A DNA stretch of 64,000 bases. Source: Botryllus schlosseri (Eukaryota). The notes beneath the pieces were generated by a model, which saw nothing but the letters and a program-made list of their open reading frames with translations, was not told where the DNA came from and made no database searches. Made by a program: the position numbers and the translations under genes. Of the stretch, positions 2,333 to 27,374 are shown in pieces (position 1 is the first letter of the stretch; every line of letters starts with the position of its first letter). The stretch lies in contig CM119372.1 of the NCBI GenBank assembly GCA_051294905.1, positions 5,458,001 through 5,522,000 on the forward strand, read 5' to 3'.

Positions 2333-2474
2333 CTAGAGCGACGTCACATCGTCGCCATTCTTGTCTTTACTCTCTGGCATTTCCTCCATCTGAGCGGCCT
2401 TGTTTTCGTAAGCTTTCTTTTCCGAGAGCGGCGTGTCGGGGGATTTTGACGCGGTGCTGTGGCGGCGCGAGGCG
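2333..2474 (-). CDS. Gene A last exon: cytoplasmic tail ASRRHS...KKAYENKAA...DDVTSL*
   Basis: Acceptor ttccag|C completes the phase-2 codon CT|C from the TM exon. Basic juxtamembrane RRH, then TAG at 2333-2335. Confidence 0.8.
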
Positions 2475-5400
2475 CTGGAATTACCAAAATAGTTTGCGAA
2501 TGAGCCCAGTTGCGGGCAGATCATTTCACGCTGACCAGAAATGGACAACTAGAGTTATCTAGCTGTCTAATTTGATGAGAGCATTATGCCGGTAAAATAA
2601 TCTAATCTAAGTTGAGCAATGCTTCTATGATATAATTTTAATTCTCATCGAATTTCTGGTTTTCCTGAAAATGCTACAGAACTGTACAGTGCGAAATGAA
2701 CCAAGCTTGGTGTAACCCTGTACACTGTACGGCGTTCGCTGGCCTGTAGCAGGAATTAAGGAACATATTGGTATAAATTAATAAAAGTTATAATCATTTT
2801 GTTCAAATCGAAATAATGTCCCTCGCAAACTAACTTCCAAGTTTAGACACTGGTCCAAATATAGAAAAAATTTGAAATTCAAAGATGTTCTTTGCTACAA
2901 ATTTAATCTTCAAATGTATGTCCTTTTTCACTTCTTGTAAACTTCATCCATCAACTTGACTTCTCTTTCTATTATTATGTTAGTGCCAGGACATCTACGA
3001 CGGACATATCCGACTTCCAATGGGGTTTTGAGGCACTTTATCGCTGCAGGACATTCGACCGCAAAGATAGCAGCAAATTATCTTTGGTATATTCTAGAGC
3101 CCGAACGATATTAGATTTTTGGGTCGATACCGATAAAACCGATATCTCACACCAGGGATATCTAGAAACTAGTTCTAGAAGTTCTAGATATCCCTGTCTC
3201 ACACTTTGACCGATAACCCCAATACATTCAGCCGATATTCAAAAGAAGTTGGATGTATACACAAGCACATTTTCAAAGCTTCAGGGCATTTGTTTGAACA
3301 TCGTTACAGCCATTGTTATACTTGAACAAGAAATAAACTGGAAAGCCTGCATCTGGACACCTGTAAAGTGTAAGCTATATGAAATATATCAATATTCTCA
3401 GTCTAGCGGTCAAAGATTATAGTTTTCTGACTTCCTACCAGTGTTGGGATCAAGTCACTACCTTCGAGTCACGAGTCATTTCGAGTCATTGCACATTTTG
3501 ACTCGAGTCAAGTCAAGTCAATCGATTTTCAAAGGTGACTCGAGTCAAGTCAAGTCACTCGATTTTTGGAGGTGACTCGAGTCAAGTCGAGTCAAGTCAA
3601 GTCAAGTCACGAGTCAAGTCACATTTCAAGTCAAGTTGCCTTTTCGATGTATGTATGAGGCATGATTACGTCATTGCAATTTGCTAGCTGTCTGAAATTC
3701 AGTTTGAGTGGTCATTGGTCATTGATTCCGAACCGATGAACGAATATAGGGTTAAATATACACGCAAGAAGGCGCTTTATCGCTCACATATACATAGAAC
3801 TGTTAAACTACGTAATTGCATAGCCTCAGTTTATAGTTACCAGCCAAAATAGAGAATGGGGACACGAATTGATAAGATGCAATACGTTACCCATTTACAA
3901 ATAGATATGATACCATTCGAGCCTGTGCCAATGGTTGAGGACTATATAAACTATATTCGACTTCAATTTCAATAAAACAATCGGCTTGGTTAAGGTAAGA
4001 TGAGAACAAAAATAGACATTTTGCTATTCTATTACTTTACCACTATAGTTGCTTTAAGCTTCGATCACTTCGTTTGCAGTCAATCTATTTGTGAGAGAAC
4101 AATCGAGGCTCTGTGAAATGCACGCTTATTGAATGATTGGTCGCTCGCTCTCAGTCTCACGGGTTACACAAGCGTTTCGCGAACAATCCGAACATATCCA
4201 AGATACAGTGATTTTTATCGACACCGATTACTTAATGACTTGAAATTGACTCGTGAATTTTGCTCCGAGTCACGAGTCAATCCACATTTCTGATACGCCG
4301 AGTCAAGTCAAGTCAAGTCATTTTGGCAAAGTGACTCGAGTCAAGTCAAGTCATGCGAAAAAGGTGACTCGAGTCTGACTCGAGTCAAGTCATGACTCGA
4401 GTCATCCCAACACTGCTTCCTACCGCCATGTTGTGACGTCGCGAAAATTACCGATAATTCTTTCAAAGTGTGATAACGTCCCGATATTATCGGCGAACCG
4501 ATAATCGGCGAACCGATAATCGGTTAGGCTCCAGTATATTCCATCCATACACATCTGGTTAGAATACCAGACTTCCTGACGATGAATAAGCATGATATCT
4601 CAAAGAGTTATTCTCCATCTGGGGACTTGGAAGTACGGAATTATAGCCCTTTGAGCTTCATCTCGCATTGCGTAGAGATGGAAGTTTATGTCATTTGACT
4701 AGTGGTAATCTATTATTTTCTCTGAAAGAGCAGCATGCTCTGCACAGCACATAGATCAACTTAAAATCATTCCTCTATCCTCGGTTTTCTAATATTTTCA
4801 TTTGAAATTCTGGCTTGGTGGATTGTACCAAGTTTTTGTAGTGTTTTACCATTTCATCCCCAAATTTGTAGCTGAGAGTTGCATTTGTTGAGGATGTTGG
4901 ATTGAAAAACTCTGACATATGCTTTAATATTATATTATGTTGGCAACCAATGTATTGTGGTTTATGTAAACCCTAGCTCATCATTGCATTTTGCAGTTTC
5001 ACAACAACGCCATTCCGCCGCCCAGTATCAACAGATTCTGAGTCACATATGATATGACATTTTCATCATATTCCTCTAATCAGTTTTCTAGACCGGTGAA
5101 AATATGTTGAGTTGTTCTACTTTCGCCTTTTCGAGCACCCAGTTTGATTTGTGTCAGACAAATTGAAATTATACGATATATACAGTCTACATCTAAAATC
5201 GAAATTAATAATTATTTAGTAATTATTCAATTTTTACTGTAAGCAAGAAAACGATCAGATTAATTCAATCTGGGCAATCACGATTTTCAAAATACTATTT
5301 TAAATCTTCGCAATTGGAATTGTGTCCGTTAAATTCGTATCAGTCGCTATATATATTATATAGTCTGTATCTACAAAAAAAGCCTATCCTTCATACAGTG

Positions 5401-8400
5401 AAAACTGGAAAATTTTTGTGCGGGAGGTTTTTCTTGAACCAGTCCTAACTTTTGTTCATTTTGAAGTCAGGACACAAAAGTTCATCGTTTGTGACTACAG
5501 GACACACAAAATTTGGAATTTTTGTTTTCTAGCGAAATTTTCAATTTTTTATTTTCTGTAATAAATTAAAATTTTTAATTGGATCTGCGGAGTCCTGCAC
5601 TTGTTAGAATTGAACCAAATTTGGTGTGCAGCGTTTTATAGGGTAAACTGACAATTTAATCCGTGAATGGCTGAAATCCGGGAAAAAAAAGTTATTTTTG
5701 AACAGCCCTAACGTACAGCCATGACATTCCCATGCTTATGAGAAGGAAAGTCTCTGATTTGATATGAACTGAACTTGATTTTTGTTATTTTTTTCTAGAT
5801 TATTTTTCGAAATTATTAATTCGTAATTTAATTCAATTTACAAGTTTTTGCGAATTCAGAAATTCGAACTATAATCCAATTGGGAGCTCGTGAGGCTCAA
5901 GACGTGCGTTGCTTAAAACTAGAAAGTGCAAATCACCATCCAAAATACTCATTTTGCTCGACCAGAGTAGCAAGCGAGCCAGCATTTACGTATGATACGC
6001 CAGTCGCACGGTATAATCAAATAGTTAAATTCTGTAAATTGGTAGATATTCAAACCTAATTTTTGTCTGCGTTTTAAATCAATCATTATATATGGTAAGG
6101 AAGCATACCACCGCGTTGACGACGCCTTCTAGCGCAGTGCTTTCCAACCGGTGGGTTGCGATGAATTTCTAAATGCTACAGTTTTCTATTCCATTTGCCA
6201 GATATACTGAAAATGAACACCTATCTTCTCACGATTAGGCGGGCCGTTCTCCTCCTCTGATTTAAATTGTTTTGTGTCGATAAGTGCCGTGCTCTCAATA
6301 ATTCATGAGCCAGCCGGCTGTCTGTACCAGTCATCTTGATAGGTTGGAGCGTGGAATTGGACAGTGTTTTTGTATGCCTTAAAATTGAAATTCATTCCTT
6401 CCCACAAAGTTTTTGCGAACGTTGATAGGAAAATGCAATCCAGCCAGGTTATAATCAGCAAACAATTGCCGCGACGCAAGCCATACCAGGAACCCTTTTT
6501 GTGTTCGACGTAAAACACGAGTTACTGCTTGAATACACGCTTTCTCGTTTGTAATCAACTATTACAGTGATTCTCAAACTTTTTCAGACACGCCCCCATT
6601 TATGATAGTGAAATATTTCGCGCCCTCCTTATCGTCACATCGCAAAATGCAACGAGAATGCTGGCAATCCTAACAAATAGTTTGATGGCATGGGAGGTTA
6701 TGACTGTTGATGAGAAAGCTCTCAAATATGGAATTAGGACTATACACACAGCAATCACCATGGATTTTTCATTTGATTGCAGCTTCGCGCCCCCTTCCAG
6801 ATGCTTTCACGCCAACCCGTTAGAGAACCACTGATCCATTACATGTATTCTTGTCTCCTTGATACACTCGTATTCTCGAATGGCCGCGCAATTTCACTTA
6901 TGAGAGTCTAATTTAACCCGTTACTCACACGACTCATAGTATGTCGCATTACGTTCTCATTCGTTCGGTCGTATCTCATAGTGGGTCGCATAATGAAACT
7001 TGCATTAGGAGAGGGTCACGAACAGAAAAAGGTTATGAACAACTGCTTTAGCATACCCTAAAAATCATCACGTCCAACAGCCTGGAGCTGCAGAAATAGT
7101 TTGCCGGACAGTTGAGATTGCGACACTCGAGAATGTGACTTTATCCCCCAAAACTAAACCCTAACCCCATCATCATTCGCATTCCAACGTAACCACGAAT
7201 CTAACCTTAGCTCAAGTCATGCATAAGCTTATCATGCTTAATTGCTCATCGCTCATTTGTCCAGTGTAGACGGGCTATCGTAATCACCCGACCGCGTCAT
7301 TTAACCAGCAACCGCTCGCCACCCGCTGACAGCTTTTTTTACACGATCTAAACCAGTGCTCTTCCATCTTTTTTGGTGAGGTGCCCACTTGCATGTGCTG
7401 TGACGAAATCGCGCACCCTTTTTAACGAGCAGCCACTAAAGGTCAATTTGACAGCCAGATCCGCAGAAACAGGGACTAGATACAACATACTCATCAACGT
7501 TCACAGATCTTTTAAAAAAAGTTGATCTCCGCGTGTCAGCCTAATCGCGGCCTATTTTGAGAGTCGTCTGTTGAAAAGGTTAGCATCTTCGCAAGGGTCA
7601 GTTTTGAGCCGACTTTGGTTGTCTAAATTTACTAAGTAGAGCGAAATACTGGTAATATAATTCTAATCTCATTTGTTAAATGTTTCTGCGCATTAATTCG
7701 AATTCTAATCTAATTTCTGATTTCACCGACAGTGTTTCAGAAGGACTGTGCAGCGTGAAACTATACAGGCTTGAAGTACAGACATTTGCTATTCTCATCC
7801 TTATGAGAATTGAAACTGATTTGCTACAAACTGAACTCGAATCAGCATGTTTTCGTGAATTCAGTAATGCTAATTCTAATCCAATACGGACAAACAGGTG
7901 TAGCTATATTTATAAGCAATGTTCCCTCTACTTTTTGACGAGTCTGCGCGCACTTACCAGCTCACTGCGCGGTCCCCTTGGACAACAGTGCGTAACGACC
8001 AAAATAAAGGTCATCACTTTGTATTTTTTGTGCGCAGCTCAAAGTGAACATTGATTATAATTCTAGTCTAGTCAGATTTGGAAAAACTCTCTGCTTTTGA
8101 GCGTAATTATTCTCATGCACCCCATGTATATTTTGATGCACTTAACCGGTCGAAGAGCACTGATCTAGACGAGGTCGAAACGTGTACTTACAGCGCCCAG
8201 CCGATGCCGGCGAAAAGGCAAGCTCCCGCGATCGATCCGAAAACGATCCCCACGATCTCACCGCTGCTGAGTTCTAAACGCGAGCGACAACATTTACGAG
8301 ACGCTTCCACCGATCGAAAACCAAGCCGCATCACCTCCGCCACTCCCGCCTTTCACGATCACTCCGATTTCAGCGCCATCTACCCGGTAGCTCTCCCCGG

Positions 8401-11400
8401 ATATCCTCTGCACAGCCGAGAACTGATACTCTCCGGCGTCCTCGAGGGTCACGTCGTACCTCGTGTAGACATACAGCCGCCTGCCGTCGACTACTGTGTA
8501 GTCGTTCGCGTCTGCAGCTGCCCAACGCGGAGTGCGTATGCTGACTGATACGTCGAACGGGTCGGACATGGCGTATACGTATGCACTGATTTGGAGGAAT
8601 TCGTCTCCTTCTGTGAGGGTGTACGCTGTCCTTTCAGGTTCCACGACTACGGAGAATACTATAAGGGAATAGAAAAAGAGAGAGAGACTTTATTTTCATC
8701 CAACTGAACTTACATCACAATCGACTAATATATTCATATTGAAATAAAGCTGAATATTTTCTGCTGACACTCGTCAGTTGTAAACGTCAGCAATTAGTGG
8801 AGAATTAGAAAGAAAAATGTTGTGATACGATTGTTGATATAGAATGTTCGTTCTAATTCTCCGCTACTTGCTGGCGATTACCCCTGACGAGAGTGAGCCA
8901 AAAATATTCGGGTTCATTTCAATATGAATATACTATTTGTGATGCTTGCGTATGGTGTCAAGGTGTTGGTTAGTGTAATTAGTTTACTTCTGTCTGTGAA
9001 ATCTGTTCGTTCCTCAGTTGCTCACGTCAGCTCATTTCAGTCGGTTATTTTACGTAGGCAATCGATTTCTTTGCAAAGGGACTATTTTTCTTACTTTTGC
9101 GAGGACTAGGACACAGACAGAACATTAACGAACAGGGAATCGCGCGTTGCTGTATAAAGTCAAACTGACAGTAGAAACGACAGATTTGGAAACTTCACTG
9201 TAAATCAGACTTGTACCAAGTACCAACTACCAATCTAGTTATTTGACAGTTTGCTTACCACTGTTTCTTCAGTAGTTCTGATTGCAGATTTTTAAAAGTG
9301 AGTAATTCTTGTTCTAGTTGCACATTTCAAAAAATTTAGCTGCAGAACTAGAAAAACACGCGTCGTTATTTGGTGTGAATCGTGATACTGTCGATGTTCT
9401 TGTAGCCATTGCTAGCTCAGAGTCATCACAACTAACAGCCAAGAATTGGATTAGGGGGTCGAGACCCCTTCCATTTCAAACTTATACAGATGTTCATGTG
9501 ACCAAACTCTCTGATTATGATGATATAAAAATCAATGAGTTGCTTCGGAATTGAATGTAGTTAGTTGCGTGTTAGTGAGTTGGTTGTGGATTTTCAGAGG
9601 TCATTAGTTACAGTTCTAGTTGCGAGTTTTGAAAATCCATGGGTTTGGAGGATTTGTATTTCTGTTTCAAAAAAATCGAAAATGACCTCCGACTCCGAGG
9701 ACGTCCAAATATCCTCCTTTTTGGCAATTCGTCCTCCTTCATAGCTTTGACAGCTCGGCGATTGTACCAGTACAGGCACAACTAAAAAAAGGCATAATGA
9801 CACGAAAAAACTGTATTTCGACGGCAGTGACGGCAAGTATGAACACAATCTGATGTTAGAGCGGGTCTTGCGGGAGCGGGTTTTTTCGGGAGTAGATTCG
9901 GAAAATGACCTCTTTTTTTAGTCGACGAGAGTATTCCCAAAAAATTACCCGTTTTCCTGTTCGATTTTTAAGTTTTTTTTATTTGTAAAAAGTGTCCTCT
10001 TTTCTGGTTCTCAACAATATGCTAACCCTACTGCTGTTACAAACTAGGTTGGCGAATGTTGATAAAAGTCGACTCCAAGGCACAAAAATGAAAGTGTGAA
10101 CGGCGTCTCCTGTGTAATTGGTTATCATAGATAATATAATTCGAATTATTCAAAATCAACCCGCACATCTAGTGGCTAGGGAAAAGCGGTGTTCCACACA
10201 TCTTCGAGATATCGGATGAGTCAACATGCAAACTTGATATTTTTTCAAACCAACCTTCCAGTGTAGTTTCGTCCGTAACGTTGTAGGTGTACTGATTGTA
10301 GATTATCTCCGTCAACCGGAATACATACTGCCCCTGGTCACTCTCGTATTCGACACTGGGAATCGTGTAAAAGTACGTCCGCACGCCGGGATTATCCCCG
10401 CTCTCTGTCCAGCTTTCGACCGGTAACGTTCCGAGTGTGGGCGTGTCAACTTCCATCAGGACTAACCAAGTACGCGTCGTGATGGAAACGGACATTCTGA
10501 CCTCGCCGCCAGGCTCGCCGACGTACGGGCTAGTTATGGGCTGTATGGCAGCCGTGAACACTGTAAATGCATGAAATGTATACGTTTTTATTGTGGGTAG
10601 GTTGTTTTCGATAAAATACATGATATGGCAATATATATTAGTTTACTGTAGACAGGTAATCGAACGAAAGTAAGAAATGATTACTGCTGCTGCTCAGGTA
10701 GCAAATGACAATACGAAACAGCAATTCTAAGTTTGGAGGCTACTCACGATTCCAACCCAAGCATTCTTCATTGTCTTTCTTAACTAATAAATGTATGGCG
10801 CAAGTACAAATGGGTCCAGCGACTCAAGCACTCGAATCATAGACGAATATCCATCGTTATGATTTCATTAGTGAAAGTCTATTAAATAATGGAAATGCAC
10901 GCTTTCACACCAGAAGACGACAATAAATATAGTTTCAATGCTACATCAACATCGTTGAAGTCTCTAGACATTGGTTAGCCGTGTCTCTGCATCAGTTAAT
11001 ATATGGTTAGATTCAGAATTTCAACGCCTAACCAACTACTCCACGAAGCTAGGCGAGAGTAGGGCAACCGAGCGTGTATATAATCAAGAAGACGAGATAA
11101 CTTTGTTGTAAAAATGAACACCATGCTTCTCGTTAATCGACCGCGCGCAACACTGGTAATACGACTTACTGAATATTATCGTCAGAATGGATATTTAAAA
11201 AGGACGGGGTTTCGCGTTTCAAAATGGGGGTTATTCAGCATCTATTATTCAATTCTGCCACATTTTGTAGTCACTCCTTTGTGACGGCATCTAGCCCGCA
11301 TACCTCCGTAAAATCAGAGTATTCAGATTCCAGCCCTATTGATAAACATATTACGACACAATGCAATTGATACCACAATGTACCGCAACACCAACGCGTA

Positions 11401-14400
11401 TAACGACAACGGTGCAGCCACTTCGGCGTGCACAAGATCGCAAGATGCATAACTAGCTGAATCCCGAAGCATTGGTATTCCATTGAAAAAATATTTCGCA
11501 CCAAACCCACTTACCGTGAAGGGAGAACGGGGTACGCTTCTCCTCTCCAAAAGCATCGGTCGCGACAGCTTCATAATCCCCATGGTTTACGTCGTAGTCA
11601 AGGTCGGTGATGTCATATTCGTAGTATCTCTGAGTGTTTAGATCTCCGTATCTGTACTTGGTCACAGGCACTTGCGATCCGGACGGGGTGACAACATGCA
11701 CCGACACGCCCTCCCATCGTCCGCTTGTCACAACCATTATATCGATCGTGGTGTCCTCGCCGGACACAGCCGTGTATCTGCCCTCCTCGACAACAGGACT
11801 TATCGCAAATTCTATCACAAAGAAAACGGGTTGTTTGCTTTCGATATTTCCTATTTCAAACGGACGCTCACGGTCTTTTTCAGCTATCCTCGAAACAAAG
11901 TGTTCCAAAACTAGATCCACTTCCAAATATGGAATCGCGGCGCCCGACGAACTGAAATAATACAGATTTGGGAATAGCGCCCGTGTTACATAATGCAGCA
12001 CATGAGTGATTGAACAGTGCAAAACCCAAACCCCACTGGCGTGGTGTGGAATAACTTACCATCTGCACTCCGCATTCTACATTTTGTGAGTTTAAAAAAT
12101 ATGTTTCGACTGTCTGCTCTCAATCTACTGCTAAATTGTGTTCTGCCTAATGCCTAACGACCAATGACCTTAGTTTATTTACTCCATATCCAAGTATTTC
12201 CCACGATGCTGCATTTTTTCCCATTCATTTGCATTATTGTTGGTTAATCTGAACTTCCGAGTGTACCGCCTTCCGTAGTAAGAAGCTCTTGGCCTGGTTG
12301 GCTCGCATACGATGACTGGTACATTGAGCTTCCCATTATTAGCCCAGTGGTTCTCAAGCTTTTTCACTGTGGGAGCCATTTTATGAACCTCAACTCTGTC
12401 GGGAGCCGCATGATGGCACGAATAACGTAATTTATTGAGAATAGAAAAATATCATCAAAAATGGTATCAACGAAATGGTGTACGGCTAAAATAGCGACGG
12501 CCTTAATAGCGACGGCCAAAACACCGACTGGCCACAACAGCGACGGCCATAACAGCGACGGCCAAAACCGCGATTGGCTCAAACAGCGACGGCCAAAACA
12601 AATACGACAATTTCCCCAGACGACACTGTGACAGCGGGCACTCCCCATACGGACAACTTCCGAAACGACGTTACCCAGCCACGTCCCTTCACCGATGGTA
12701 TACCGAGGTATACCCTTCACCGTTGAAGCCGATTGCGGATGATTTACAATTTACATTCTTCCAGATAGTAAATAGATAGTGATCACCACAGATTTAGCGT
12801 CACAACATGTTTATTGAGACTTAATCCACAATCTTTCTGAGTTCCGAGAGCATGTGAATTGAGTTTGGATGAACAAGGCGTGACGCTAAATCTGTGGTGA
12901 TCACTATCTATTTTGCAACTTAGTGCGAAACTTGAAATTGAATTTGATTTTTCACAAGTTTGTCATAACGAGGTTTCATCGTGGAGGAAGCTGTGCACAA
13001 GAGCTGTTTCAGATGACGATCAGTCAATCGGTTGCGATATTTGCTTTTGATCCTCACTAATTTGCTGAAAAGGGCTTCACATACATAGGTTGAACCGAAC
13101 ATGCAGGCATTCTTCGATGCGTTAGCTATCAGGTTGGGGTATTTTTCTTCAGGAACAGCACCCCAAAATTCAAGGAGTCCATTGCTTTGAAACAACAGTC
13201 GCAATTCTATATCGGACTGCAAGTCCAGCAGTTCCATCTGAAAAATATCAGGGGCAGTGGCGGCATCTACTGCCATTGGGTTTGAAAATATATTCATCAG
13301 GGGTACGGAATGATGCATTCCCTCTATTCGACGTTTAAACCCGTCAATCAAGGTACTAATAACCTGGTCATATGTTTTGAATGATCCATTCTGTCGGTGG
13401 TTTGAAAGCGTTACAAAATGTGTCGTAACACCCTCCTCTAGGTGCTTTCTCCAAAGACACAATTTCTCAATGAAACCAGACACTGTCCCGTACCAGGCGT
13501 GACAGAGCTTGTTATTTCCTTGTAAGTTCCGATTTAGTGACGACAGGTGTGAGGTAATATCCACCATGAACGCCAAGTCAGCAACCCAGTGTTCGTTTCC
13601 CAACTGAGGGATGTCTTTCTTTCCTTCGACAAATATTTTAATCTCAGGAAGTAGCGCGTAAAATCTTTTGAGGCATGCAGCTCGGCTTAGCCATCGTACA
13701 GCGGTGAACATGATCAAGTCTCCATGGTCAGCATCAATATCGGTGAGAAAAGCCTTGAATTTTCGATGGTTAAGTGCGTTTGCTCGAATCCAATTTACGG
13801 TCGATATTACTATATCTGTCACATTGGACATCTTTAATGATTTAGCAACAAGACTTTCCTGGTGTATAATGCAGTGTTGCCAAGTCACAGCGTCAAGATT
13901 CTGTTCAGCACGCCATTTGTTGACGAGTCCTTGAAGACCTAGATTTTTGCCGAGCATTGCTGGGCAGCCATCTGTCGCCAATGAATATAATTTCGATGGG
14001 TCTAAATGCGCTTCTTGAAGAGTAGCATGAAATTCACGAAACATGTCGGTTCCCTTCGTTGTGCCATGAATAGATCGCAAAGTAAGAAACTCCTCGCAAA
14101 TCTTGAAATCTGGCATGACTCCCCGGATGAATACAGCTAATTGCTCTATGTCGGTAATGTCGTTAGTGCTGTCAAGAGCAAGCGAGTAGTAAGAAAAATC
14201 TTGCGACTTGTGAATAAGTTGCTCATGCAGATCTTGGGATATGCAATCGACACGACGCGTTACTGTATCATTGCTAAGCTGCAATTTTTTAGCTTTCTGC
14301 TGAATGGCAGGAGAACAATTGTCTTCGGTAAACAAAACAATAGCCTGCTTCGTAATTTCGCCATCAGAATATGGCTTCATATTGCTGGCCAATAGATGAC

Positions 14401-17400
14401 TGATCTTATATGATGTTATTGTTACCTCTTCGGGTTCTTTTTTTTTTAAAAACATTTTTCCTTGTTTGCTACGCTCTGCTTTCAGACATTCTAACTTCCG
14501 TTTCCTTGATTCACCTTGATAGACGTCGTATTTTCCCGCATGTGTTTTATAATGCCTCTTAACGTTGAAAGATTTTACACCGTTTATTATTATAGGGCAC
14601 AGAAGGCATTTCGCTTTGCCGTTTTCCTCAATTTGAAAATACGCCTCTTCCCATTCACTTTGAAAGGCCCGATTTTCTTGCACAAGGGTGCGAGATTTCT
14701 TTGCAGGTTGATCTGAACCTGACATTATCATTGAACCAAAGTCTCCGATATTTTCTAACGCTATCAAGATCAAAGCAAAGAGTAAGAAAATAAAGTACCT
14801 GCAGTTACCCCAAACGTTGATTGTCTTATTGACCGAGTCTCTTGTCACCCGTATTCTAATATGAGCCGCCGTCTCGAGCGAAATAAACTTCGCCCGTCTC
14901 ATTACAGACACCTGATTAGGCTTAGGTCAGACGGTCAGAGCCTTCAGTAAAGCAGTAAAGGTTCGGATTTAAAGCCTACCGAAATTACTATCGGTAATGT
15001 TACGTCACAACCCGTACAACTTGTATTACGTAGGATTCTATTGTGATCAGGGAATGACCTTCGCGTCAGTAAACGTGAACATAAACGTACATTTGTTGTG
15101 TTGAAGGCGCGATTTATTTATGATCATGAATAATTAGAATTTCCGTAGAAGCATCAATGATTTCACATCGTTAGTGAGAGCCGCACGGAGAGCAGTCGAG
15201 AGCCGCATGCGGCTCGGAGAGCCGCGGTTGAGAATCACTGACTTTGCTCATCTGCATATTATACATCACCTAATTGCATTATTTTGTTATGTAGGTTATT
15301 GATTTGGACAGTTGCCAGATTAAGATTCTCTCTCTCTCTCTTGACTTAACAAGGATTGATTCGGATTACTATGAGGTATGATGTGAAGATATAACATTCT
15401 AATATATCGTGAGTCACGTTTTACTTAACACTGCGACACTACACACGTGTAGGTAAACTAAATTTCATTTCATTTTTCATTGAAATCTCACTCCGTTCAC
15501 TGCTAATATTATGAGGTTGCGTCGCAGAAATGCTGTTCTTACAGGTTTGGCGACAAAACGCATATGTGTTTTACAATGGAGTTCATGTAGATATTTAAAA
15601 ACATAATTCAGACTTGAAAATTTTTCGAGTATATTTATATTACAGCAGGGGTGGGCAGACCTGCTTCATGTGCGAGCCGCCTATCAAAAATGTTAGCTTT
15701 AGAAGAGCTCGATTCGAGAGTTGAATTGCAAAGTTCTAACCGTAGTGCAACTCTCCCAAGAATTTTACAAGTCTTGCGTAAACCATAGAAACAACCAAAA
15801 GACAACACGAAAATAACACGCATATTGTTAATTCGCGATAGAATACATCAATTTATAGTCGGGTTAAACTTATCTAGCAAAATGGTCAAACGCATGCGCA
15901 ATCAATCGCTGTAAGAGCCGCAGTTTGCCCGCTCCTGTAACACAGGTTTTCAAAAAGGAAGCCGTGAGATAGCTACCTGGCTAGTAAGGTGTATCCCATC
16001 ATGATATTTCGTGCAGGTCCCGACACGGTCGCTTTGTTCCCGAGGAATTGCGGGGGCGTTTTACCCACGGTGATGTTGAAGCTGTCCGGCTCAACGGAAT
16101 CCCAGTACTGAATTATCATAACCGATAATTACACCCAACACAATGAAAATCACCCAAAAAGTGTCTCACAGATGGATTGGTAATCATGAAATAAACTTCA
16201 CATATTGTCGGGCTACTGCCTTGAAGAACTTGAAACGTTTCGTAAGTCACTGTGTATGTGCCTTCCACCAAAATACGACGGTAGGTCTCAAAACTCTCGG
16301 CGTTGCTTCCAGCCGTGCCTTCTACCTGCATTAAATCATCCGTTACCATACATCACGCGCCAACAGTGGCTTCCAAAAGCGTCACCTCAATGCCAAATCT
16401 ATCCCGAACGCCGCCAGTGTTTGTGATCCACATCATCGAAACAAATGGGTAGAGACTCTTGGAAGAGAAAGTGATCACGCCATTACTGCGAAAAGAGAGA
16501 AAGTTTTTCAACACCCGAACTATTACATTCATGCATTGCAGTGTCTCACTCGTAAGGCTTTCCGTATGGTTGATTGATAACTTCGTCGCTTGTGAGCAGT
16601 GTGCCCCATTCCAACGAGATCTGTATGTACAAATCTTAATCATTCTGACATCTGTTTTAGATATTGCCAATGATAAACTGTGCAATAATGATATCCTGGT
16701 ACCATACGTAAGGCTTATGCAGAAAGTGAGATGTATTTTATATGTGACAGGATTCCTGGTACCGCTTCAAAATCAAGTTAGTCTATGACTAATTACAATT
16801 ACCACTGGAGGCCATTATGGAATTTGCAGGTTCCACGGCTGGGTTTAGTTACTCCAAATGCTTTTCACGGGATAGGCATTTAATGCTATAGTCAAGTACA
16901 TGGTGGGCTACGCAATAAGTCATAACATATATCCATACAGCAGTACGTAGCTTCACGAGTGCAGAATTATTCTCATTAGAGGCAAAGTTATAATTTCCTG
17001 CCTCTCCTCGGGGCATATGTACGTCAGGTCAAAATACAGCGAAGGATCACAACTTGAAATCCAAGAAGATCACAAAACGTACCGCATTTCCACCATTGTA
17101 CATATCATTGCCACCGTCAGCTATGTTTGTGTAGTCGGGACCATCATACCAGTAGGTGGTCCAGTTGGAGATGTAGCTCACCAATTGATCAGAGTCACTC
17201 AGAATGCGGTACAAGTAGTCGTCGACGACAGTACCATCTGTGAAATGACGGCACCTATTTAGCAATATGCGTCATTTAAAAAACATCACATGCTGCTGAT
17301 CTGGTCCAAAAGATACGCACCAGAAAATAGGTAAAGAAAAGCCGAAGTAGGTGAACTGTGGACATATGCGTATGTGGGTTAAGTGGGGGGTTTGGGTTGA

Positions 17401-20400
17401 CCTAAGGTCACTTTCGAAGTGATAAAGTCACGTGCTCATGTGTCCAATGCTCGACGGTCGTTTTTGATTATGTGACATGCTCAAATGTCGGGCAACTTGC
17501 TTATACACATCTTGCACGATCACCAAAGTCAGTTACTACAGACAAATTGACAGATGTATGGACACAGATCAATTTTCGACGGCATCTATCGCGCGGAGCA
17601 CTCACTATGACGCTCGACGATGTGGTTGACGTTAAGAGTGAGCGATGTCGCTTGAACTCGTTCGGTGAGCGCAATCCAATACAATCCTTCCGTCACATCC
17701 GTAACGGTGGCCGCAAACACTCGGATTCTGTCCGTTGGACCGTCAAACATTTCCATCGGAAATACTTTGCCATCCGGCGCCTTCACTTCTGCGTTTACAT
17801 TTGCCCAATCTCCGTCGCATATAGCGTATATCATCATCTCCGACTTGTCCTCTCTTCCGGCGATGTGAGAGTCGAACTGCTCCGGCAGGTGATCGATCGA
17901 GAGCACTGCGACAAGGCAAGGCCTTATTTCAAAGGCAGACAAGACGGCAGACTTCCATCTCGTTGCAATAAGGCGTCGTGTTGCCATCATTGGATGCCGG
18001 GATCAAAATTGGACAAGATAATGCTAGTTGTGAAATTAGACTAATTCGAGAAAAATTCCAAAATGGACTTCCACTTGAAGTATCTTTGACTGGTCTAGAA
18101 AATGTAACTTTGATTCGTCTAGAAAATCTCACTTGCAACAGAATAGAAATTTACAGCGTTACTTCAAATTATACGACAGTACAGAAACAGACCTATAGTA
18201 CAACATCCGGATGTACTTTTTGAACTGTGGATGGTAATAAGCGACGCACTGCTTCTAAGAACAACTTGACATTGAATATATTAGTGAAAAAGTTGTGAAA
18301 AAAGCGCTAAGACTGTTGAGCTGTCACTAAACTTATTCACCATTTAAAATAGTCCAAAGCGCAACCTTTTGAAATTTTTTTGACACTTTTCAAACATTTC
18401 CCGGTCAAAACCAAGTTATCGCAAGATATAGTGTGGAGCTATATCTTTGATCAAACAGTCGGACCAAATTGTGGTTTCACTCCCAACATTTTGAAAAATA
18501 TCAGAAGAAGATAGTCAATGCTCATTGGTTATTCTAAGGCAGTGGTTCTCAAACTTTTTTTAGACATGCCCCACTTGATGATATCGCCATATTACCATAT
18601 CAAAAACACACAAGAAAAGCATACTTGGAGGGCAGGGAAGGTTGTGACTGTTAAGAGACTTTTCCAATATGAAATTCGGACTAGTCACAGAGCAATAATT
18701 ATAAGCCAGATGTAAATCGCAACGAGTGCGAAAGAATTTTCAGTTGAATGATTCGTCAAAAATAATCCAGTGCAATGGTAGCACACAGCACATAGATATT
18801 TTAGCGATTTTGGTGTCTGTATCCCTTCTATTAGCCCACTGGAGCTTGGCTTAAACGTAGCCAACCTGACCATAAGCTCAGTCAAAAACCAAACGGAGCA
18901 GGCCGCAGTCATTCAAACTTGGCACTTCTTCACGGGACAAACAGTTTTTCTGTTCAGCAAGAGTATATTTCTGTCGGGTACTTTTGGACTGCCATAAAAT
19001 GTGCTTCGTAAGGATGGCATTCTACAAAATGAGTTCTCATTGAGTATACTCGGAGGGGCTAGTTGGACGTTTCTTAGATTCAAAAGGTATATCATACATG
19101 GCATGTGACGTGACCTTGTAAGGAAATATCTTACTGCAGACTCCACAAGTCCAAATGGCCAGAAAAGAAGATGCACGGATGAATGATTATCCCACACATC
19201 ACACAACCCAATCACAAAAAATTCTTGTTCTTGAAATGAAGCAGGTATCTAAAGTCCTAAAACAGCCACCATTTTCACACATAGGCCTACTGACCGATCG
19301 ATGGATTGAAATGTACTTACAGTAAACAGTAATGTTCAGCATGTCCGACGACACCTCTCCAAATCGCGACGCGTAAAAAGTATATACCCCGGCGTCTTCG
19401 ATGAATAGATTAGGCATGGTGTAAGTGTAAGTCCTCTCCCCGCTGCCTACATCGGTCGTGACCGCTTCCTCCACATTGCCATCCGGCAAGACCACCATTA
19501 CAGTAATGTCAGCCCAATCGTTAGTGGTCACAAGTACAGGGATGTCCAATTTTCCGTTGTTGGTTTGCTGAAACAATTCCGTCGCCTCCGCTCGTATACT
19601 TGCAGTAAGAACTGGAAACGGAGCGAAGAAAAACAGGCTTTACAGACTTTTATTGCTAAGGGTAAAACAATCAGGTCGACCATTTTGTAAATATTGTATA
19701 GAAAGTCATCACTGATTTGTCTTGAGGTATGATTTCCAAGGCAAATGTGTGACGTATTGTTTAACCGGTTAGGACTACCGAATCGTGATAATTGAACTTG
19801 GGCCTGAACACTATGACTCGAACTTGACTCGGTGGTGAAGGGAAAATGACTCGTCTTCCCTCGAGTCAAAACAATTAAAGTAAAATTGGATTGTGATTCG
19901 GAAACTTGATTACAACCCTGACTTTATATGTGGCAACAGATACACCAGTGTTCAACATTTATAAAGAACACTCGATAACCATTCTACCTTGAACTGTTGT
20001 GCTCGATTCGAGCTGATATCCGGTAAAATCAGTTACGATAAACGTGTACACTCCATTATCCTGTTCGTCTGGATTAGCGATGGTGTAAGGGTATATCCTC
20101 GCGTTACCGTCTTCTGTGAAGTAGGTCAGAGGCACGTCGACCCCACCAGGGGTTGCAATCCTCACGCTTGAAGTTGACCAATCGGGTGCAACGATTCTAG
20201 AGCTCAGAGTGATGCTATTTTCGTCAGGCTCCACCACAGCCTCGGCTTCAGCAGAAATGCTGACACCTATAAGTGAATATCCATCAAGTTATTCCGGTAG
20301 TTTCAATGAAGTCTTATAGGACATATTCAGGCCCTAGAAAAACTGCAAGAAGACGAAGCAAGGGTGGAGAGAGTGTTTATTGATGCTATTTTAAGTACCA

Positions 20401-23400: not shown

Positions 23401-26400
23401 ATTCCCGGTACCGACACCAGTTTGACTCGCAACCTGTACACGACACATTACGGTATCTAATGAAATCTACTGTCTACAGAAACATCCTGAATTCGAGAGC
23501 TCATCTTTATCATCACCATCGTTTTTACAGTTCCAATTGCATAAAAAAATTATATGGATTGATTGACCTTAGAAACTCACACTTTGGTCAGATCGCGTCA
23601 GTTTGCAACCACATGATAACCTCAATGTTACACATGCACACCAGCCTATATTGTTATCATCTAAAACCGCCGGTCCATGGCAAGTTTTCTACCGGTCCGC
23701 CAAATATATAAGACTTAAATATCTCAATTCCGAAATCAGAGAAATGAAACATTAAATTTTATCCGATTTCATATTTTCTGCATAGTGTCGCACTTTACAA
23801 TATCCATTTCATAGTCTGCTCGGGGCTTAGGGAACGTCACAATGCTGGAAGTGCTGTGTGAAAATGTTTAAAGTAACTCCCACAGCTCGTTCAGGAATTG
23901 TTATATGTGAAAGCTGTAAGAAGACATTTAAATATTGGTCGGTAAATTTCAACAGTACAATTTATTCTGATGTTTTAGCAGTCCGCAAGGTCAAAAACGT
24001 TGAAAGCCAGTGATGTAAAGCTGATCCAATATTGTTGAAAGTGTATTACATATAATTTCAAATTATCTGCTCTGCAGCTATGATTTTTCTCGATTGATTA
24101 ATACGTAACGTTAACAATGTTCAACATTCATCTAACCTACAAACGATTCGAGATCAATGGACTTGTGGCTAACTCATTGTAGAATAATGCGCAGTGCACA
24201 GGTGTCAAGTTATCCATATCTGCGATTTGTGTCAATATTTACAGGAAAAGTCAATAATTAGAAAATTAGGTGACACCACGCTCTGTGTTAGCATGGTTCT
24301 CGTAACCACAAGTGGAGGTTAGTACAACAAGACAATAGTTTATCATGCGAACAGGATATTTGATCATCAGAGATAATTGCAATATGATTTCACGGCCAAC
24401 AACAACGCTTACTTGATACCCGAACCGAGTTTGTGATCCTTCGCTGTTAGTAATCCACATTAACGATGTAAAAGGGTAAGTTGGAACGGATGAGAACTGA
24501 TAGCTTTGGAATCTGGTAATATATTGTACGCTCAAGGTGTGATCACAATTTACCGACAAACTACTAATATCCCCACCCATAAGGCTTTCCATATGGCACC
24601 ATGGATGTCGATTGGTCCTCGCTGGTTGAAATTGATAGCTGTGTAAGATACATTGCAATGCATCACTAGTAAACTTGTATTGGACAGGATTTAGTACTAA
24701 CGTAATTTCCTCTGTCATACATATCATTCCCTCCGTCAAGGACATAAGTACTATCAGGACCATCATAGAAATAGGAGTAAAAATCTGGAAGTGCCGCTGT
24801 CAGGGAAGCAGTTGCGAATTGAATCCTGTATAAGTATTCATCCACAGTCATGGTGGCTGGAATGTAAATGAATATTATGAAATGGTTTTTTCACGACATG
24901 ACCTTACTTACGATTCACTTCTACCATTGCAATTGCCTCGATAGCTTTGGATTGACCGCCAAGGGCTTCTGTGACTGTGAACTTGTATTCTCCCGGCACA
25001 ATGTCAGTGATCTCGCTGGTGTAGTATCTCCAATTCGACCCTAGTGACGTGGTCGTTTTCATGGTGACAGTGTATCCTTGACCCGATGGAGACAAAGTGG
25101 TGACAGTAATGTCGTCCCAACTGCTGTCCGTTCGCACGTACGATGATATCGTCAACTCGGTTGTTCTCTCGACGGCGTAATATTGTGATTCCGGGTGAAG
25201 CAGGGACACAGTGTAAACTAAAGTGAAAATTATTTTATTAGTAGGCCTAATAAGTAGTGTGGTTTTTTTGACCAAATTTTGTCAAAATTGCAGCTTAAGG
25301 TCAAAATTTTTTTGACGTCTGCATTTCGTTTGTATCGTAAATTTTGCACTGTCGGTTGACGTATCATTTGATATTTTACAGCTTGTAGCCTACTTTATAA
25401 GCCTACCGTTGTAAACGGCTAATCCTCTGCTCATTGTGAATCATAAACGGTCAAATAAAACAAATAGGTAGACATGGTATCATGGTCAGCGTAACGCAAT
25501 ATCCTAACTGAAGAAAGACTTCTTGGGCATTGCATCATTCTTATACTGAGAAGTGCATGATGAAAAATGGTGATGTGGACAACATTGTCAGAATGAAGCA
25601 ACACGGTGTGCCACCAGCAGTGCACACACAAGTTGAGGGTAGTCAGCCAACAACTGCTGCTGTTGCACGTTCTTGGCAAGTTTCATAGTGCACTTTCTAC
25701 CCAAGAATGTAGGAAAGTGTCTCTCTTGGTACCACAAATTTTTTAAATTATTTCCACCATAATACGTATTGTAATCCCTGGAATTTTTCATAGGGTCAGA
25801 TTTCGTTAAAATATTGTTTTTTTTTCATGTAAAAAGTTGCCTGTTTCTAAGCCAAAAACGTTTTTTCAGGCCAAACTTCTTCGTTAGGACAGACAGTTCC
25901 AACCAGAAATGTAGATAAGTGGTACAATTTTAACATTACGTGGGAAAACACCTAATTTGCATACGCTAGGTCAAAATTTGGTCAAAATTTTCTTTTTTTC
26001 AGGTAAAAAAAATTGCATTAGTAATAAGGCATTAGTAGCATGCACATGCACACTATATATTTTCTCTTGGCTATTTAGCACACAATAAAAGTGAGTGTGG
26101 ACATATTTTCGAACTTCTCATAATATAAATGATAAGATATGGTAACCAAGACTTCAGTGAACCTAACACAATGCGGATGAACCAGGGGACTGCACTTGCT
26201 TGCATCCAAAGACAAGACCTTGATCAAAGAGGCAAGCCGTCAGATTTTCATTAATAAAATTCAGCTACTCATGCAGTAACAGATGATTTTATTGCATGGG
26301 TGGGTAGTGGAGATTTTAACCGATCACATCTGAGAGAGAGAGATATGATATTCTTTCTCGCCTGCACCATCGAGATGCTTTGGCGACGGAAATGCGATAC

Positions 26401-27374
26401 GGCCCCATGAGGTCATCTAGTCTGCGCCCCCGTTTTTTTTTTCTCCTCCATGCTATCCGTGATTGCTGAGCGCCTAGCAGGATAGCTGCGGATACCATTT
26501 TTCGAGTCTTTGGTATGACCCGGCCGGGGATCGAACCCACGACCTACCGCTCGAGAAGCCGGACGCATAACCATTACACTATCTCGCATTAAACTTTTAT
26601 CAATCCCAGATGAAATATTGTCAAAGTGTAATGGGCGGGTTAATATAGTAATTTCACATAGTAAGCTAAACTCGCTAGCATCTCTTCAATACACGAACCA
26701 CATAAATAAGCGTTCCCCATGACAACCAATCTATACTATTTATTAACGTTATGGTTTGGAGGGAATTGAGAAATTGTAGTTACACCACTTACTTACATTG
26801 GTATCCCACTAGTGCTAACCGGAGTCAGTGATGCACATCAACTAATTGTAGTGGGGTACACTTCTAAATGCGATCGTGTATCAAAGAAGTATCTAATACT
26901 TTCGAGATTTAGGACTTTGTATTTACTTAATGAACATTAGAATGATAAGACAGACGGTGGAACGTGGAACCAACAAGTGTTCCATAATTTTGACTATAAT
27001 ATTGCAATTGATCAAAATAGAAAGGAAAGGACATAGAAGATTGGCTGCTAGTTAGAACTCACTATAGACTTCGACGGATGAATCATCTTCACTTGTATTC
27101 CCCGACGAGCCCCCTTGGTTCCCAGAATCTGCAGCCGTGAAGGTGTACGTTCCGGCATCGTCAATAAATAAAGACGTCACAGTGTACGAATATATTCTGG
27201 ACACGGAGTCCGGGTTAGTGTCCGCCGTGGAAGCATCCCCCACTCCAAAGTTCGGCGTTTGAACCTGGACTGTGACACCATCCCAACCGGAATCGGACGT
27301 TACATTTACGTAGATCTCTAACTCTGAATCACCGTCACTCCCCCAAAATGCTTCAACGGGCGATGTTACAACAA
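2333..27374 (-). CDS. Multi-exon type I membrane protein (gene A): 8 Ig-like domains lacking the canonical disulfide, 2 copies of an unrecognised ~230-aa domain, TM, short tail; 5'-partial
   Basis: Exons in transcript order: 27374-27063, 25217-24912, 24856-24702, 24638-24577, 24512-24413, 23433-23275, 23209-23079, 21957-21878, 20266-19988, 19611-19321, 17905-17606, 17237-17083, 16620-16550, 16485-16386, 16325-16170, 16107-15977, 11951-11872, 11811-11515, 10560-10255, 8658-8335, 8273-8192, 2474-2333. All have AG/GT boundaries with compatible phases. The total of 4019 nt (2 nt + 1339 codons including TAG) stays in frame. Confidence 0.88.
3153..3196. mobile_element. 44-bp TIR-only mini-element
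   Basis: CAGGGATATCTAGAA...TTCTAGATATCCCTG flanked by the perfect 8-bp TSD TCTCACAC. Confidence 0.85.
3439..4415 (+). mobile_element. hAT MITE with GACTCGAGTC/CAAGT subterminal arrays, copy 1
   Basis: TIR CAGTGTTGGGAT, perfect TSD CTTCCTAC. Confidence 0.93.
6565..6833 (+). mobile_element. ~300-bp hAT MITE family (also 34929-35240, 39582-39897 and a partial copy from 18540)
   Basis: TIR CAGTG(G/A)TTCTC, shared core aaatgcaaccagaatgctagcaat. TSDs are decayed. Confidence 0.82.
7354..8162. mobile_element. hAT MITE with a nested ~137-bp element (7917-8053)
   Basis: TIR CAGTGCTCTTC, TSD ATCTAAAC/ATCTAGAC. The inner element has CAATGTTC...GAACATTG ends. Confidence 0.8.
8192..8273 (-). CDS. Gene A transmembrane exon LSSGEIVGIVFGSIAGACLFAGIGWAL
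   Basis: Acceptor tttag, donor gtaagt. Hydrophobic ~22-aa helix preceded by the common LSxGxIxGI entry motif. Not in the ORF track. Confidence 0.88.
8335..8658 (-). CDS. Gene A Ig-like domain 8
   Basis: Phase1-phase1 exon with a pyrimidine-rich acceptor and DAGEYQF motif. The donor (gtgatg, 61-nt intron) is the least certain boundary. Confidence 0.82.
8728..8934. repeat. Imperfect ~200-bp foldback (MITE-like); ends approximate
   Basis: tatattcatattgaaat...agaattagaa pairs with ttctaattct...atttcaatatgaatata. Confidence 0.78.
10255..10560 (-). CDS. Gene A Ig-like domain 7
   Basis: Phase1-phase1 exon, tttacag acceptor, gttggt donor, DQGQYVF motif. Confidence 0.85.
11515..11811 (-). CDS. Gene A Ig-like domain 6
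   Basis: Phase1-phase1 exon, gtaagt donor, W...V.TPSG and HGDYEA motifs. Confidence 0.85.
11872..17237 (-). CDS. Gene A domain X copy 2 (six exons, 231 codons)
   Basis: Exons of 155, 71, 100, 156, 131 and 80 nt. Motifs VDDYLYRI, DGGNDMYNGGN, PYGKPY, YPFVSMMWITN, PTICEVYF, NIMMGYTLL match copy 1. Confidence 0.87.
12491..12597. repeat. Tandem ~15-bp repeats (ACAGCGACGGCCAAA-like, ~7 units)
   Basis: Directly visible periodic gcgacggcc units inside the transposon 3' region. Confidence 0.85.
12770..12913. repeat. 144-bp hairpin immediately 3' of the transposase stop
   Basis: 12770-12803 is the exact reverse complement of 12880-12913 (34 bp). Imperfect pairing continues inward. Confidence 0.92.
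12920..14731 (-). CDS. Intact hAT transposase, Buster/SPIN (GTF2IRD2-like) group, ~603 aa
   Basis: N-terminal CxxC...HxxxH zinc finger, YSLALDST, ATDG, CIIH, RWLS and STYVCEALFS motifs. Uninterrupted ORF. The first ATG is at 14731; the track's longer call starts at a non-ATG codon. Confidence 0.95.
   Translation of the reverse strand: MIMSGSDQPAKKSRTLVQENRAFQSEWEEAYFQIEENGKAKCLLCPIIINGVKSFNVKRHYKTHAGKYDVYQGESRKRKLECLKAERSKQGKMFLKKKEPEEVTITSYKISHLLASNMKPYSDGEITKQAIVLFTEDNCSPAIQQKAKKLQLSNDTVTRRVDCISQDLHEQLIHKSQDFSYYSLALDSTNDITDIEQLAVFIRGVMPDFKICEEFLTLRSIHGTTKGTDMFREFHATLQEAHLDPSKLYSLATDGCPAMLGKNLGLQGLVNKWRAEQNLDAVTWQHCIIHQESLVAKSLKMSNVTDIVISTVNWIRANALNHRKFKAFLTDIDADHGDLIMFTAVRWLSRAACLKRFYALLPEIKIFVEGKKDIPQLGNEHWVADLAFMVDITSHLSSLNRNLQGNNKLCHAWYGTVSGFIEKLCLWRKHLEEGVTTHFVTLSNHRQNGSFKTYDQVISTLIDGFKRRIEGMHHSVPLMNIFSNPMAVDAATAPDIFQMELLDLQSDIELRLLFQSNGLLEFWGAVPEEKYPNLIANASKNACMFGSTYVCEALFSKLVRIKSKYRNRLTDRHLKQLLCTASSTMKPRYDKLVKNQIQFQVSH
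15646..15937. mobile_element. hAT MITE
   Basis: TIRs CAGGGGTGGGCA and CAGGAGCGGGCA (rc), gagccgc subterminal motifs, TSD TATTACAG/TAACACAG. Confidence 0.72.
17606..17905 (-). CDS. Gene A Ig-like domain 5
   Basis: Phase1-phase1 exon, cgcag acceptor, gtgagt donor, DW.NV..EV.APDG and EGLYWI motifs. Confidence 0.83.
19321..19611 (-). CDS. Gene A Ig-like domain 4
   Basis: Phase1-phase1 exon, ttccag acceptor, gtaagt donor, DAGVYTF motif. Confidence 0.86.
19988..20266 (-). CDS. Gene A Ig-like domain 3
   Basis: Phase1-phase1 exon, DNGVYTF motif. Confidence 0.85.
21214..21824. mobile_element. 611-bp foldback element (near-complete palindrome); one arm also at ~5510-5709
   Basis: CAGGGCTGTTCAAAAATAACTTTTT...AAAAAGTTATTTTTGAACAGCCCTG, with arms pairing for ~300 bp. 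CAT on both flanks. Confidence 0.92.
21878..24856 (-). CDS. Gene A domain X copy 1 (six exons, 229 codons)
   Basis: Exons of 155, 62, 100, 159, 131 and 80 nt with the same intron phases as copy 2. Motifs VDEYLYRI, DGGNDMYDRGN, PYGKPY, YPFTSLMWITN, PSICEVYF, NVMMGYTLL. Confidence 0.87.
22130..22624. mobile_element. Older GACTCGAGTC-type MITE family (related decayed copies at ~19810-19920, ~27400-27849, ~43645-43773)
   Basis: Degenerate gactcgagtc arrays ending in (t)acaaccctg. The left boundary is approximate. Confidence 0.7.
24912..25217 (-). CDS. Gene A Ig-like domain 2
   Basis: Phase1-phase1 exon, gtaagt donor, SWDDITV...SPSG and PGEYKF motifs. Confidence 0.85.
26330..26587 (-). mobile_element. 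tRNA-derived SINE
   Basis: On the minus strand, A box (tagtgtaatgg) and B box (ggttcgatccc) are followed by a non-tRNA body (gggtcataccaaagac...gcgctcagca) and a (TC)n tail. Ends approximate. Confidence 0.8.
27063..27374 (-). CDS. Gene A Ig-like domain 1 (most 5' exon identified)
   Basis: Phase1-phase1 exon, tttacag acceptor, gtgagt donor, GWDGVTV.V.TP and DAGTYTF motifs. Confidence 0.86.

Follow-up and report, generated by a model that had tools for sequence, protein, structure and literature searches.

A conserved, uncharacterised ascidian receptor gene combining disulfide-free immunoglobulin-like repeats with two copies of a mobile module, X

The DNA analysed here, hereafter the window, is a stretch of 64,000 nucleotides from Botryllus schlosseri (assembly GCA_051294905.1, contig CM119372.1, positions 5,458,001 to 5,522,000; coordinates below count from its first letter). 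Its minus strand carries a gene of 23 exons that encodes a stop-free type I membrane protein of 1361 amino acids (aa), in which a signal peptide (SP), eight immunoglobulin (Ig)-like repeats (D1 to D8), two copies of a module of about 229 aa that we call X (copies X1 and X2), a transmembrane segment (TM) and a cytoplasmic tail are arranged as SP-D1-D2-X1-D3-D4-D5-X2-D6-D7-D8-TM-tail. This is a real, conserved and uncharacterised receptor, and its parts are as follows.

33148..33214, minus strand: probable signal-peptide exon (ATG, 22 codons, phase-1 donor), found by a hydrophobicity scan, beyond the range of the initial annotation, and supported by ortholog leaders and an acceptor-like sequence upstream
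27063..27374, minus strand: Ig-like repeat D1, 104 codons; D1-D2 joint present in contigs of sequencing runs X5 and X1
24912..25217, minus strand: Ig-like repeat D2, 102 codons; hidden Markov model (HMM) test and contig joints
21878..24856, minus strand: module X copy 1 (about 229 aa), six exons (24856-24702, 24638-24577, 24512-24413, 23433-23275, 23209-23079, 21957-21878); five internal and two flanking joints in contigs
19988..20266, minus strand: Ig-like repeat D3, 93 codons; HMM test and contig joints
19321..19611, minus strand: Ig-like repeat D4, 97 codons; the repeat that was modelled, paralog of D1
17606..17905, minus strand: Ig-like repeat D5, 100 codons; the sole Cys-bearing repeat, paralog of D2
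15977..17237, minus strand: module X copy 2, exons a to e (17237-17083, 16620-16550, 16485-16386, 16325-16170, 16107-15977)
11872..11951, minus strand: module X copy 2, exon f, 80 nucleotides, length and phases as in exon f of copy 1; 59% and 48% identity to the orthologs
11515..11811, minus strand: Ig-like repeat D6, 99 codons; paralog of D3, ortholog alignment
10255..10560, minus strand: Ig-like repeat D7, 102 codons; ortholog alignment
8335..8658, minus strand: Ig-like repeat D8, 108 codons; ortholog alignment
8192..8273, minus strand: transmembrane exon; 67% and 56% identity to the orthologs
2333..2474, minus strand: cytoplasmic tail exon and stop; one Tyr, C-terminal T-S-L (class I PDZ-type motif)

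Reading the window in six frames revealed eight similar minus-strand open frames between 8.3 and 27.4 kb. Splice sites were placed by hand for 22 exons from 27374 to 2333, which gave GT/AG ends at every intron, compatible phases and 1339 joined codons with 0 internal stops; the hydrophobic ATG exon at 33214-33148, with its phase-1 donor, brings these to the 1361-aa protein. All eight Ig-like repeats occupy one exon each (104, 102, 93, 97, 100, 99, 102 and 108 codons), phase 1-1 with AG/GT ends, and one domain per phase 1-1 exon is a common arrangement in the Ig superfamily (IgSF). Module X is divided into six exons in both copies, with phases 1-0-2-0-0-2-1. The eight phase 1-1 exons, the order Ig2-X-Ig3-X-Ig3-TM and the single-pass membrane topology that an initial annotation of this DNA had proposed are all borne out by the spliced model, with 27374 as the D1 acceptor and 2333 as the stop. 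The receptor is acidic (D+E 13.9%, K+R 5.2%), carries nine N-glycosylation sequons, and contains four Cys residues (one per X copy, one in D5 and one in the TM), so that three lie in the ectodomain. A look-alike start of exon f of X copy 2 at ~15935 was rejected, as it opens an apparent inverted-repeat element and 11951-11872 fits the orthologs. Also set aside were a second hydrophobic stretch near 12620, placed within intronic repeats and unmatched in the orthologs, and the other signal-peptide candidates of the hydrophobicity scan, which were mostly GT-repeat artefacts.

Four sequencing runs were aligned to 15950-33450, a region that holds 16 of the 22 introns; the six 3' introns rest on the orthologs. 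Contigs of runs X5 and X1, which come from two studies and whose RNA status is a guess, displayed joints at 13 of these 16 introns, nine of them agreeing with the model exactly or with a permitted shift of the cut, and four keeping the modelled intron length but shifted or with 1-3 other letters. The D4-D5 joint is implied by two pieces of a single contig, and the D3-D4 and SP-D1 joints were not found among the matches listed. Depth over the signal-peptide exon (33214-33148) was 0 in all four runs, and this exon is unconfirmed. When D7 served as the probe in a run search, none of the matching runs was recorded as RNA.

A search with the first X exon identified two proteins among 97 candidates, namely P0001 (1362 aa) and Styela clava LOC120342439 (P0002). 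The latter is annotated as 'uncharacterized' and corresponds to XP_039267206.1/.2 (P0002/P0003), the longer version, P0003, having 1359 aa. Both P0001 and P0003 are colinear with our model over the full length (per-exon identity: 33-71% for P0001; 19-60% for P0003), and the leader is 32% identical to that of P0003 and 27% to that of P0001. This colinearity most likely points to an ascidian related to Styela as the source of the window. They resemble the window protein in domain order, length, ectodomain Cys positions, a similar TM and a T-x-L end, present in three of three sequences (T-S-L in the window; T-S-L and T-A-L in the orthologs), whereas the Styela tail has no Tyr. When compared to P0001, X exons a to d are 46-71% identical and Ig exons 41-62%, and several X exons are among the best conserved. 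Among 153 X-bearing proteins examined, P0001 to P0003 are the only carriers of these Ig repeats, none of which are described as being present in the named Ciona, Phallusia and Clavelina X proteins of that set; a search with the Ig profile returned P0001 alone, a weak negative since the known Styela ortholog was also missed. Identifier, motif and keyword searches found no paper on the receptor, the ortholog identifiers, X or the motifs (keyword results were judged from titles and abstract starts, and a mention in a transcriptome table is possible). That no characterised ortholog was found agrees with what had been anticipated, given the 'uncharacterized' Styela record and no papers for its identifiers. 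As for the suggestion of a lineage-specific, undescribed architecture, the architecture is indeed absent from the family libraries and papers searched, but module X is not lineage-specific; the adhesion or recognition role suggested along with it is still an inference.

When each of the eight repeats was compared with an HMM built from the remaining seven, it scored 30.2-64.5 bits (20 shuffled windows: at most 10.3 bits), and the full eight-repeat profile retrieved exactly eight open reading frames at 98-114 bits, the next best scoring 7.0. This leave-one-out comparison was used instead of a strict regular-expression control, which matched two of the eight repeats (0 in 100 shuffles). The shared pattern is therefore real, but looser than first stated: TPxG occurs literally in two, RxYxYT in five and DxGxYxF in five of the eight. 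Only P, R, G and Y are invariant, and the tyrosine corner is retained as GxY in all eight; the Trp is conserved in seven of the eight window repeats, and D2 and D5 share a short E-F loop lacking Asp. Seven repeats contain no Cys and D5 contains one, identically in all three species, and alignment to titin shows directly that Phe stands in place of the F-strand Cys, as the initial annotation had noticed. The Pfam I-set profile matched two of the eight window exons weakly (best 13.1 bits; cut-off 23.7); with whole orthologs as queries, P0001 lay above the cut-off (34.2 bits) and P0002 below it (17.2 bits). Pfam FN3 and PKD had no match in the eight repeat exons. Titin and VEGFR ranked first in a profile search of solved structures, in which mainly the E-F-G half was matched; Filamin-C gave the longest span (positions 19-81, E 0.007). 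Atlas feature matches of the repeats pointed to MG2 clusters at 0.88, which is a lead only.

An AlphaFold2 model of D4, with the eight repeats supplied as the alignment, displayed eight strands at a predicted local distance difference test (pLDDT) score of 88.3. Its best structural matches among 48,161 chains were Kit D3 and DIP-theta Ig3 (Z 11.7, root-mean-square deviation [rmsd] 2.1 over 88-91 residues), followed by Dscam and NCAM, and a second structural comparison placed DIP-alpha Ig3 at Z 12.0. No filamin, MG2, FN3 or PKD chain appeared in the top 50 VIA-align rows for D4; Foldseek listed a filamin repeat at rank 6, with near-tied E-values. These results favour the Ig-type beta-sandwich without a disulfide that had been proposed. 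In the model, W32 falls in the BC loop, with strand 21-28 before it and strand 35-40 after it, and strand C is free of Trp; therefore, the conserved Trp differs from the one that the Ig pin has in its C strand. D4 seems to be without all three pin residues; in the other repeats the Trp was placed by alignment. Replacement of the disulfide by hydrophobic residues in an I-set-like fold is strongly supported for D4. Since the B-F disulfide is missing, we file the eight repeats as I-set-like Ig folds and not as canonical I-set members.

The comparison with I-set domains of IgSF adhesion molecules and receptors (Drosophila DIP-alpha and DIP-theta Ig3, Kit D3, NCAM Ig1 and Dscam) extends from the fold of D4 (Z 11-12, rmsd 2.0-2.2 over ~90 residues) to the tyrosine corner, phase 1-1 exons and type I topology. 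Unlike these, the receptor repeats have no B-F disulfide, carry the Trp in the BC loop, are interleaved with X modules and share only 10-20% sequence identity with them; no kinase domain was found in the receptor. PMC12051499 describes C-C-W anchors as defining the Ig domain, with exceptions such as CD2. A precedent is the Alr family of Hydractinia, also invertebrate type I proteins, whose domains without canonical cysteines model as V-set or I-set (PMC9546547); the same paper adds that one of the two features, disulfide or Trp, is missing from many Ig domains, its authors being aware of none outside Alr that lacks both. Alr proteins, as presented there, combine V-set, I-set as well as Fn3-like domains with six other invariant Cys, whereas the window receptor has three ectodomain Cys, keeps the tyrosine corner and contains X modules; no gene cluster was seen within the window. 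Loss of the disulfide is not new, and loss of both disulfide and Trp is uncommon. Multi-Ig type I surface proteins are an ordinary class, and there are earlier examples of Ig domains without Cys.

The repeats also record how the receptor grew. Mean cross-species pair scores were 144.6 for D1-D4, 91.8 for D3-D6 and 89.0 for D2-D5, versus 59.1 for D4-D7 and 43.4 for D5-D8 in the alternative register; D1-D2 (92.6) and D1-D8 (94.9) also scored high. A tree of the 24 repeats grouped D1 with D4 (90/98), D2 with D5 (77/84) and D3 with D6 (85/75), with moderate supports. Both results contradict the earlier idea that a unit of X plus three Ig domains had been duplicated, pairing D1 with D4, D2 with D5 and D3 with D6 instead. 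In a tree of X, the eight copies of four receptor sequences form one clade that splits into X1 and X2 (FastTree 0.986). Judged from these sequences, the duplicated block is Ig-Ig-X-Ig, with D7 and D8 in addition, and predates the split from Styela; the support is moderate, though it all agrees.

Least known among the parts of the receptor is module X, which the initial annotation left without a description. Six X sequences, 30-50% identical to the first, gave no score above a curated cut-off in Pfam or NCBIfam (0 of 6), no match among the sequences of solved structures (best E 0.92) and no matching cluster in the Atlas. HMMER searches with X nevertheless yielded 672 representatives at E<=0.001, a number that fell to 169 at 1e-10 and to 34 at 1e-30; we retrieved the best 150 of the 672, and the context scans took in 3, 56, 50 and 19 proteins. 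Tandem arrays of seven to eight copies occur in Ciona and Phallusia LOC104266555, and several Clavelina proteins have two to four copies; Clavelina proteins also combine X with CUB, or with Sushi, trypsin and VWD/C8/TIL. The tunicate proteins with tandem X are secreted. WSC, kringle, TSP1, F5/8, concanavalin-like, CUB and VWD/mucin domains all co-occur with X, as do SdrD-B, PKD and T9SS domains in bacterial-type proteins. Phage tail collar or S74 chaperone domains accompany X in further proteins (P0068, P0095, P0115, P0134), where a receptor-binding role is possible; PHROGs gave no match to X itself in 19 proteins. P0073 (Ciona XP_078482293.1) is an adhesion G-protein-coupled receptor (GPCR) with a partial X at its N-terminus.

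An intelectin N-terminal motif precedes X in 12 of the 153 proteins, and the C-terminal intelectin motif follows X in five of these 12 under a strict pattern. X sits in an intelectin loop in P0017, P0020, P0026, P0028, P0030 and others, and P0029 has two copies. Human intelectin-1 aligns to P0020 in two parts that flank X, skipping 11 residues, and because the alignment is split in this way X is a genuine insertion domain whose termini lie close together. The X inside the lectin of one such ascidian protein (Styela LOC120328249, P0017) is homologous to that of the receptor (195 bits). These intelectins differ from the receptor in having an intelectin scaffold, not an Ig one, and in keeping the G-A-D-G-x-G motif in the four that were compared.

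AlphaFold2 modelling of the X1 copy of P0001 with 68 sequences (pLDDT 95.5, predicted template modelling score 0.93) predicted two helices at the N-terminus, ten strands and one helix at the C-terminus. The best solved neighbours were N-terminal beta-supersandwich domains of enzymes of glycoside hydrolase (GH) types GH65/GH94 (Z 9.1, rmsd 3.9 over 178 residues; then 8.9 and 8.7), and carbohydrate-active enzymes or mutarotase-like proteins make up nearly the whole of the top 50, those of the galactose-mutarotase type at Z ~7. The likeness to the supersandwich domains of GH65/GH94/GH63 (7fe3, 3wiq, 5h3z) consists of a partial beta-sheet topology and the C-terminal helix (Z 8.4-9.1 over 165-178 residues); unlike these (rmsd 3.5-3.9, identity 5-7%, template modelling score <=0.39), X is mobile and has no catalytic barrel. 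Uncharacterised viral proteins match the X model well in Foldseek (template modelling scores 0.75 and 0.69). Across 192 near-complete domains, conserved positions cluster in IxDGGxDM(Y/F)DxGN, G-A-D-G-x-G and D-P-S/T. The Asp, Asn and Gly of the first, a loop, are 83-95% conserved and the window X copies keep this motif; the Asp of G-A-D-G-x-G is present in 157 of the 192 domains and absent in 35, and the window copies lack it too. No strictly invariant catalytic-type residue was found among the 192.

Our preferred reading, tentative and given somewhat less than an even chance, is that the protein is a PDZ-anchored, non-catalytic adhesion or capture receptor whose Ig stalk presents two glycan-binding X modules. 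The eight Ig repeats would form an acidic, N-glycosylated stalk, from which the X modules would project sideways because their N- and C-terminal helices are adjacent. Both X modules would bind a ligand outside the cell, with a glycan from microbes, mucus or tunic as the most likely candidate; the contact would probably be made by the acidic IxDGGxDMYDxGN loop together with Ca2+, and the presence of two sites would confer avidity. The short tail would tether the receptor to a PDZ scaffold through its T-x-L end, a class I PDZ-type motif. Immune receptors of the immunoreceptor tyrosine-based activation or inhibition motif (ITAM or ITIM) kind have conserved cytoplasmic YxxL/I motifs. The receptor tail contains no enzyme domain, ITAM or ITIM, and its lone Tyr has no YxxL/I context; the protein would therefore hold or capture more than it signals.

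Several observations weigh against this reading. D4 is the single repeat modelled (one of eight), and X was modelled from the ortholog P0001 and not from the window copies. The structural match of X is weak, as Z 9.1 and Foldseek template modelling scores <=0.39 are barely above those of unrelated or unexplained models, and the N-terminal supersandwich domains of such enzymes are mostly not the catalytic domain. Ca2+ binding by X is suggested only by the appearance of the motif. G-A-D-G-x-G is degenerate in both window X copies and in the ortholog copies, so the receptor X copies may have lost or altered an ancestral site. The tail Tyr is present in two of the three sequences, and raw reads of the RNA runs X21 and X23 barely cover the exons (depth <1), with two reads at one joint.

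An NCAM/DIP-type adhesion molecule, which we consider unlikely, would account for part of the same evidence: the membrane-distal repeats D1-D2, duplicated as D4-D5, would make homophilic or heterophilic protein contacts between cells and X would be a spacer or modulator. The closest folds to D4 (DIP, NCAM, Dscam and Kit), a sequence profile shared by D1 and D4 and conserved across three species, the PDZ-type tail and the loss of G-A-D-G-x-G in the receptor X copies are all compatible with this role. However, a common Ig fold shows no function, and conservation of the core X exons equals or exceeds that of the Ig exons, which one would not expect of a passive spacer.

X could instead bind other X modules or matrix proteins, the receptor serving as a membrane anchor that tethers secreted tandem-X, mucin-type or intelectin-X proteins to an epithelium such as that of the pharynx, the gut or the tunic-secreting epidermis. 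The number of secreted ascidian X proteins (LOC104266555 with seven to eight copies, Clavelina proteins with two to four, and X combined with VWD/C8/TIL or trypsin) speaks for such a matrix, but single-X phage-type and bacterial proteins better fit binding to foreign surfaces than self-assembly, and we regard this anchor as distinctly unlikely.

That the repeats are E-set sandwiches of a filamin- or MG2-like kind which converged on DxGxY, and form a mechanical stalk or force-sensing tether, is very unlikely. The D4 model departs from the Ig pin at each of its three positions, and the MG2 Atlas lead, the long Filamin-C span and the filamin repeat at Foldseek rank 6 point the same way; against this, the top VIA-align rows are all IgSF at Z 11-12, titin and VEGFR I-set domains are the best profile matches, P0001 exceeds the Pfam I-set cut-off, and the exons are one-domain, phase 1-1. 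A sugar-modifying ecto-enzyme at the cell surface, mutarotase-like or glycan-trimming, is highly improbable, as the galactose-mutarotase-like fold neighbours and conserved acidic residues of X are set against the lack of an invariant catalytic-type residue, and tandem arrays of up to eight copies and tail-fibre contexts better fit a binding module.

Other elements of the window lie outside the protein. One of them occupies an intron of the gene as a passenger:

12345..15240, minus strand: hAT DNA transposon, intronic, not in the protein (Pfam Dimer_Tnp_hAT, E 2.3e-09)

Its transposase frame (14926-12923) is uninterrupted, with 602 aa from the Met at 14728, and its terminal inverted repeats have two mismatches in 15 positions with no clear target-site duplication; the insertion is possibly recent. 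Another intronic element, short (26506-26584), attracts thousands of partly matching RNA reads in runs X21 and X23 and resembles a tRNA-like repeat by eye; ARAGORN found no tRNA there. A repeat family of ~1 kb with internal short repeats is present at 3439-4415 and 30489-31450, which are inverted, 85% identical and flank most of the gene, and also at 61441-62771. Three consecutive minus-strand frames at 40000-41392 resemble a frameshifted DNA-transposase. On the plus strand, ~52483-52578 is probably the last exon of another gene, encoding a short four-Tyr tail that includes tandem YxxM- and YxxC-type stretches before the stop, possibly a signalling receptor tail. An exon-like canonical Ig domain at 62909-63253 (plus strand) has both cysteines and the Trp (Pfam Ig_3, E 7.5e-05) and belongs to a gene that probably runs off the window; it has no profile relation to the eight repeats.

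Both the receptor architecture and module X are absent from the family libraries and papers searched, and X is the main value of the finding: this domain folds well, is mobile and counts at least 672 representatives, which range from phage-type proteins to chordates. With the Ig repeats comes a second example, among invertebrates, of Ig domains seemingly without both the disulfide and the C-strand Trp. A bolder proposal, which we hold as doubtful, is that X is an unrecognised Ca2+-dependent carbohydrate-binding module common to phage-type tail fibres, bacterial adhesins and marine invertebrates, which expanded in ascidians and was shuffled into intelectins, mucins, an adhesion GPCR and the receptor described here. 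On this view the gene would stand for a class of pattern-recognition or capture receptor new to chordates, with a pin-less Ig stalk that presents a lectin fold known so far only as a glycosidase accessory domain. A function assigned to the 229-aa X could extend to the whole family, and a new lectin fold serving tunicate immunity or filter feeding could be defined by it.

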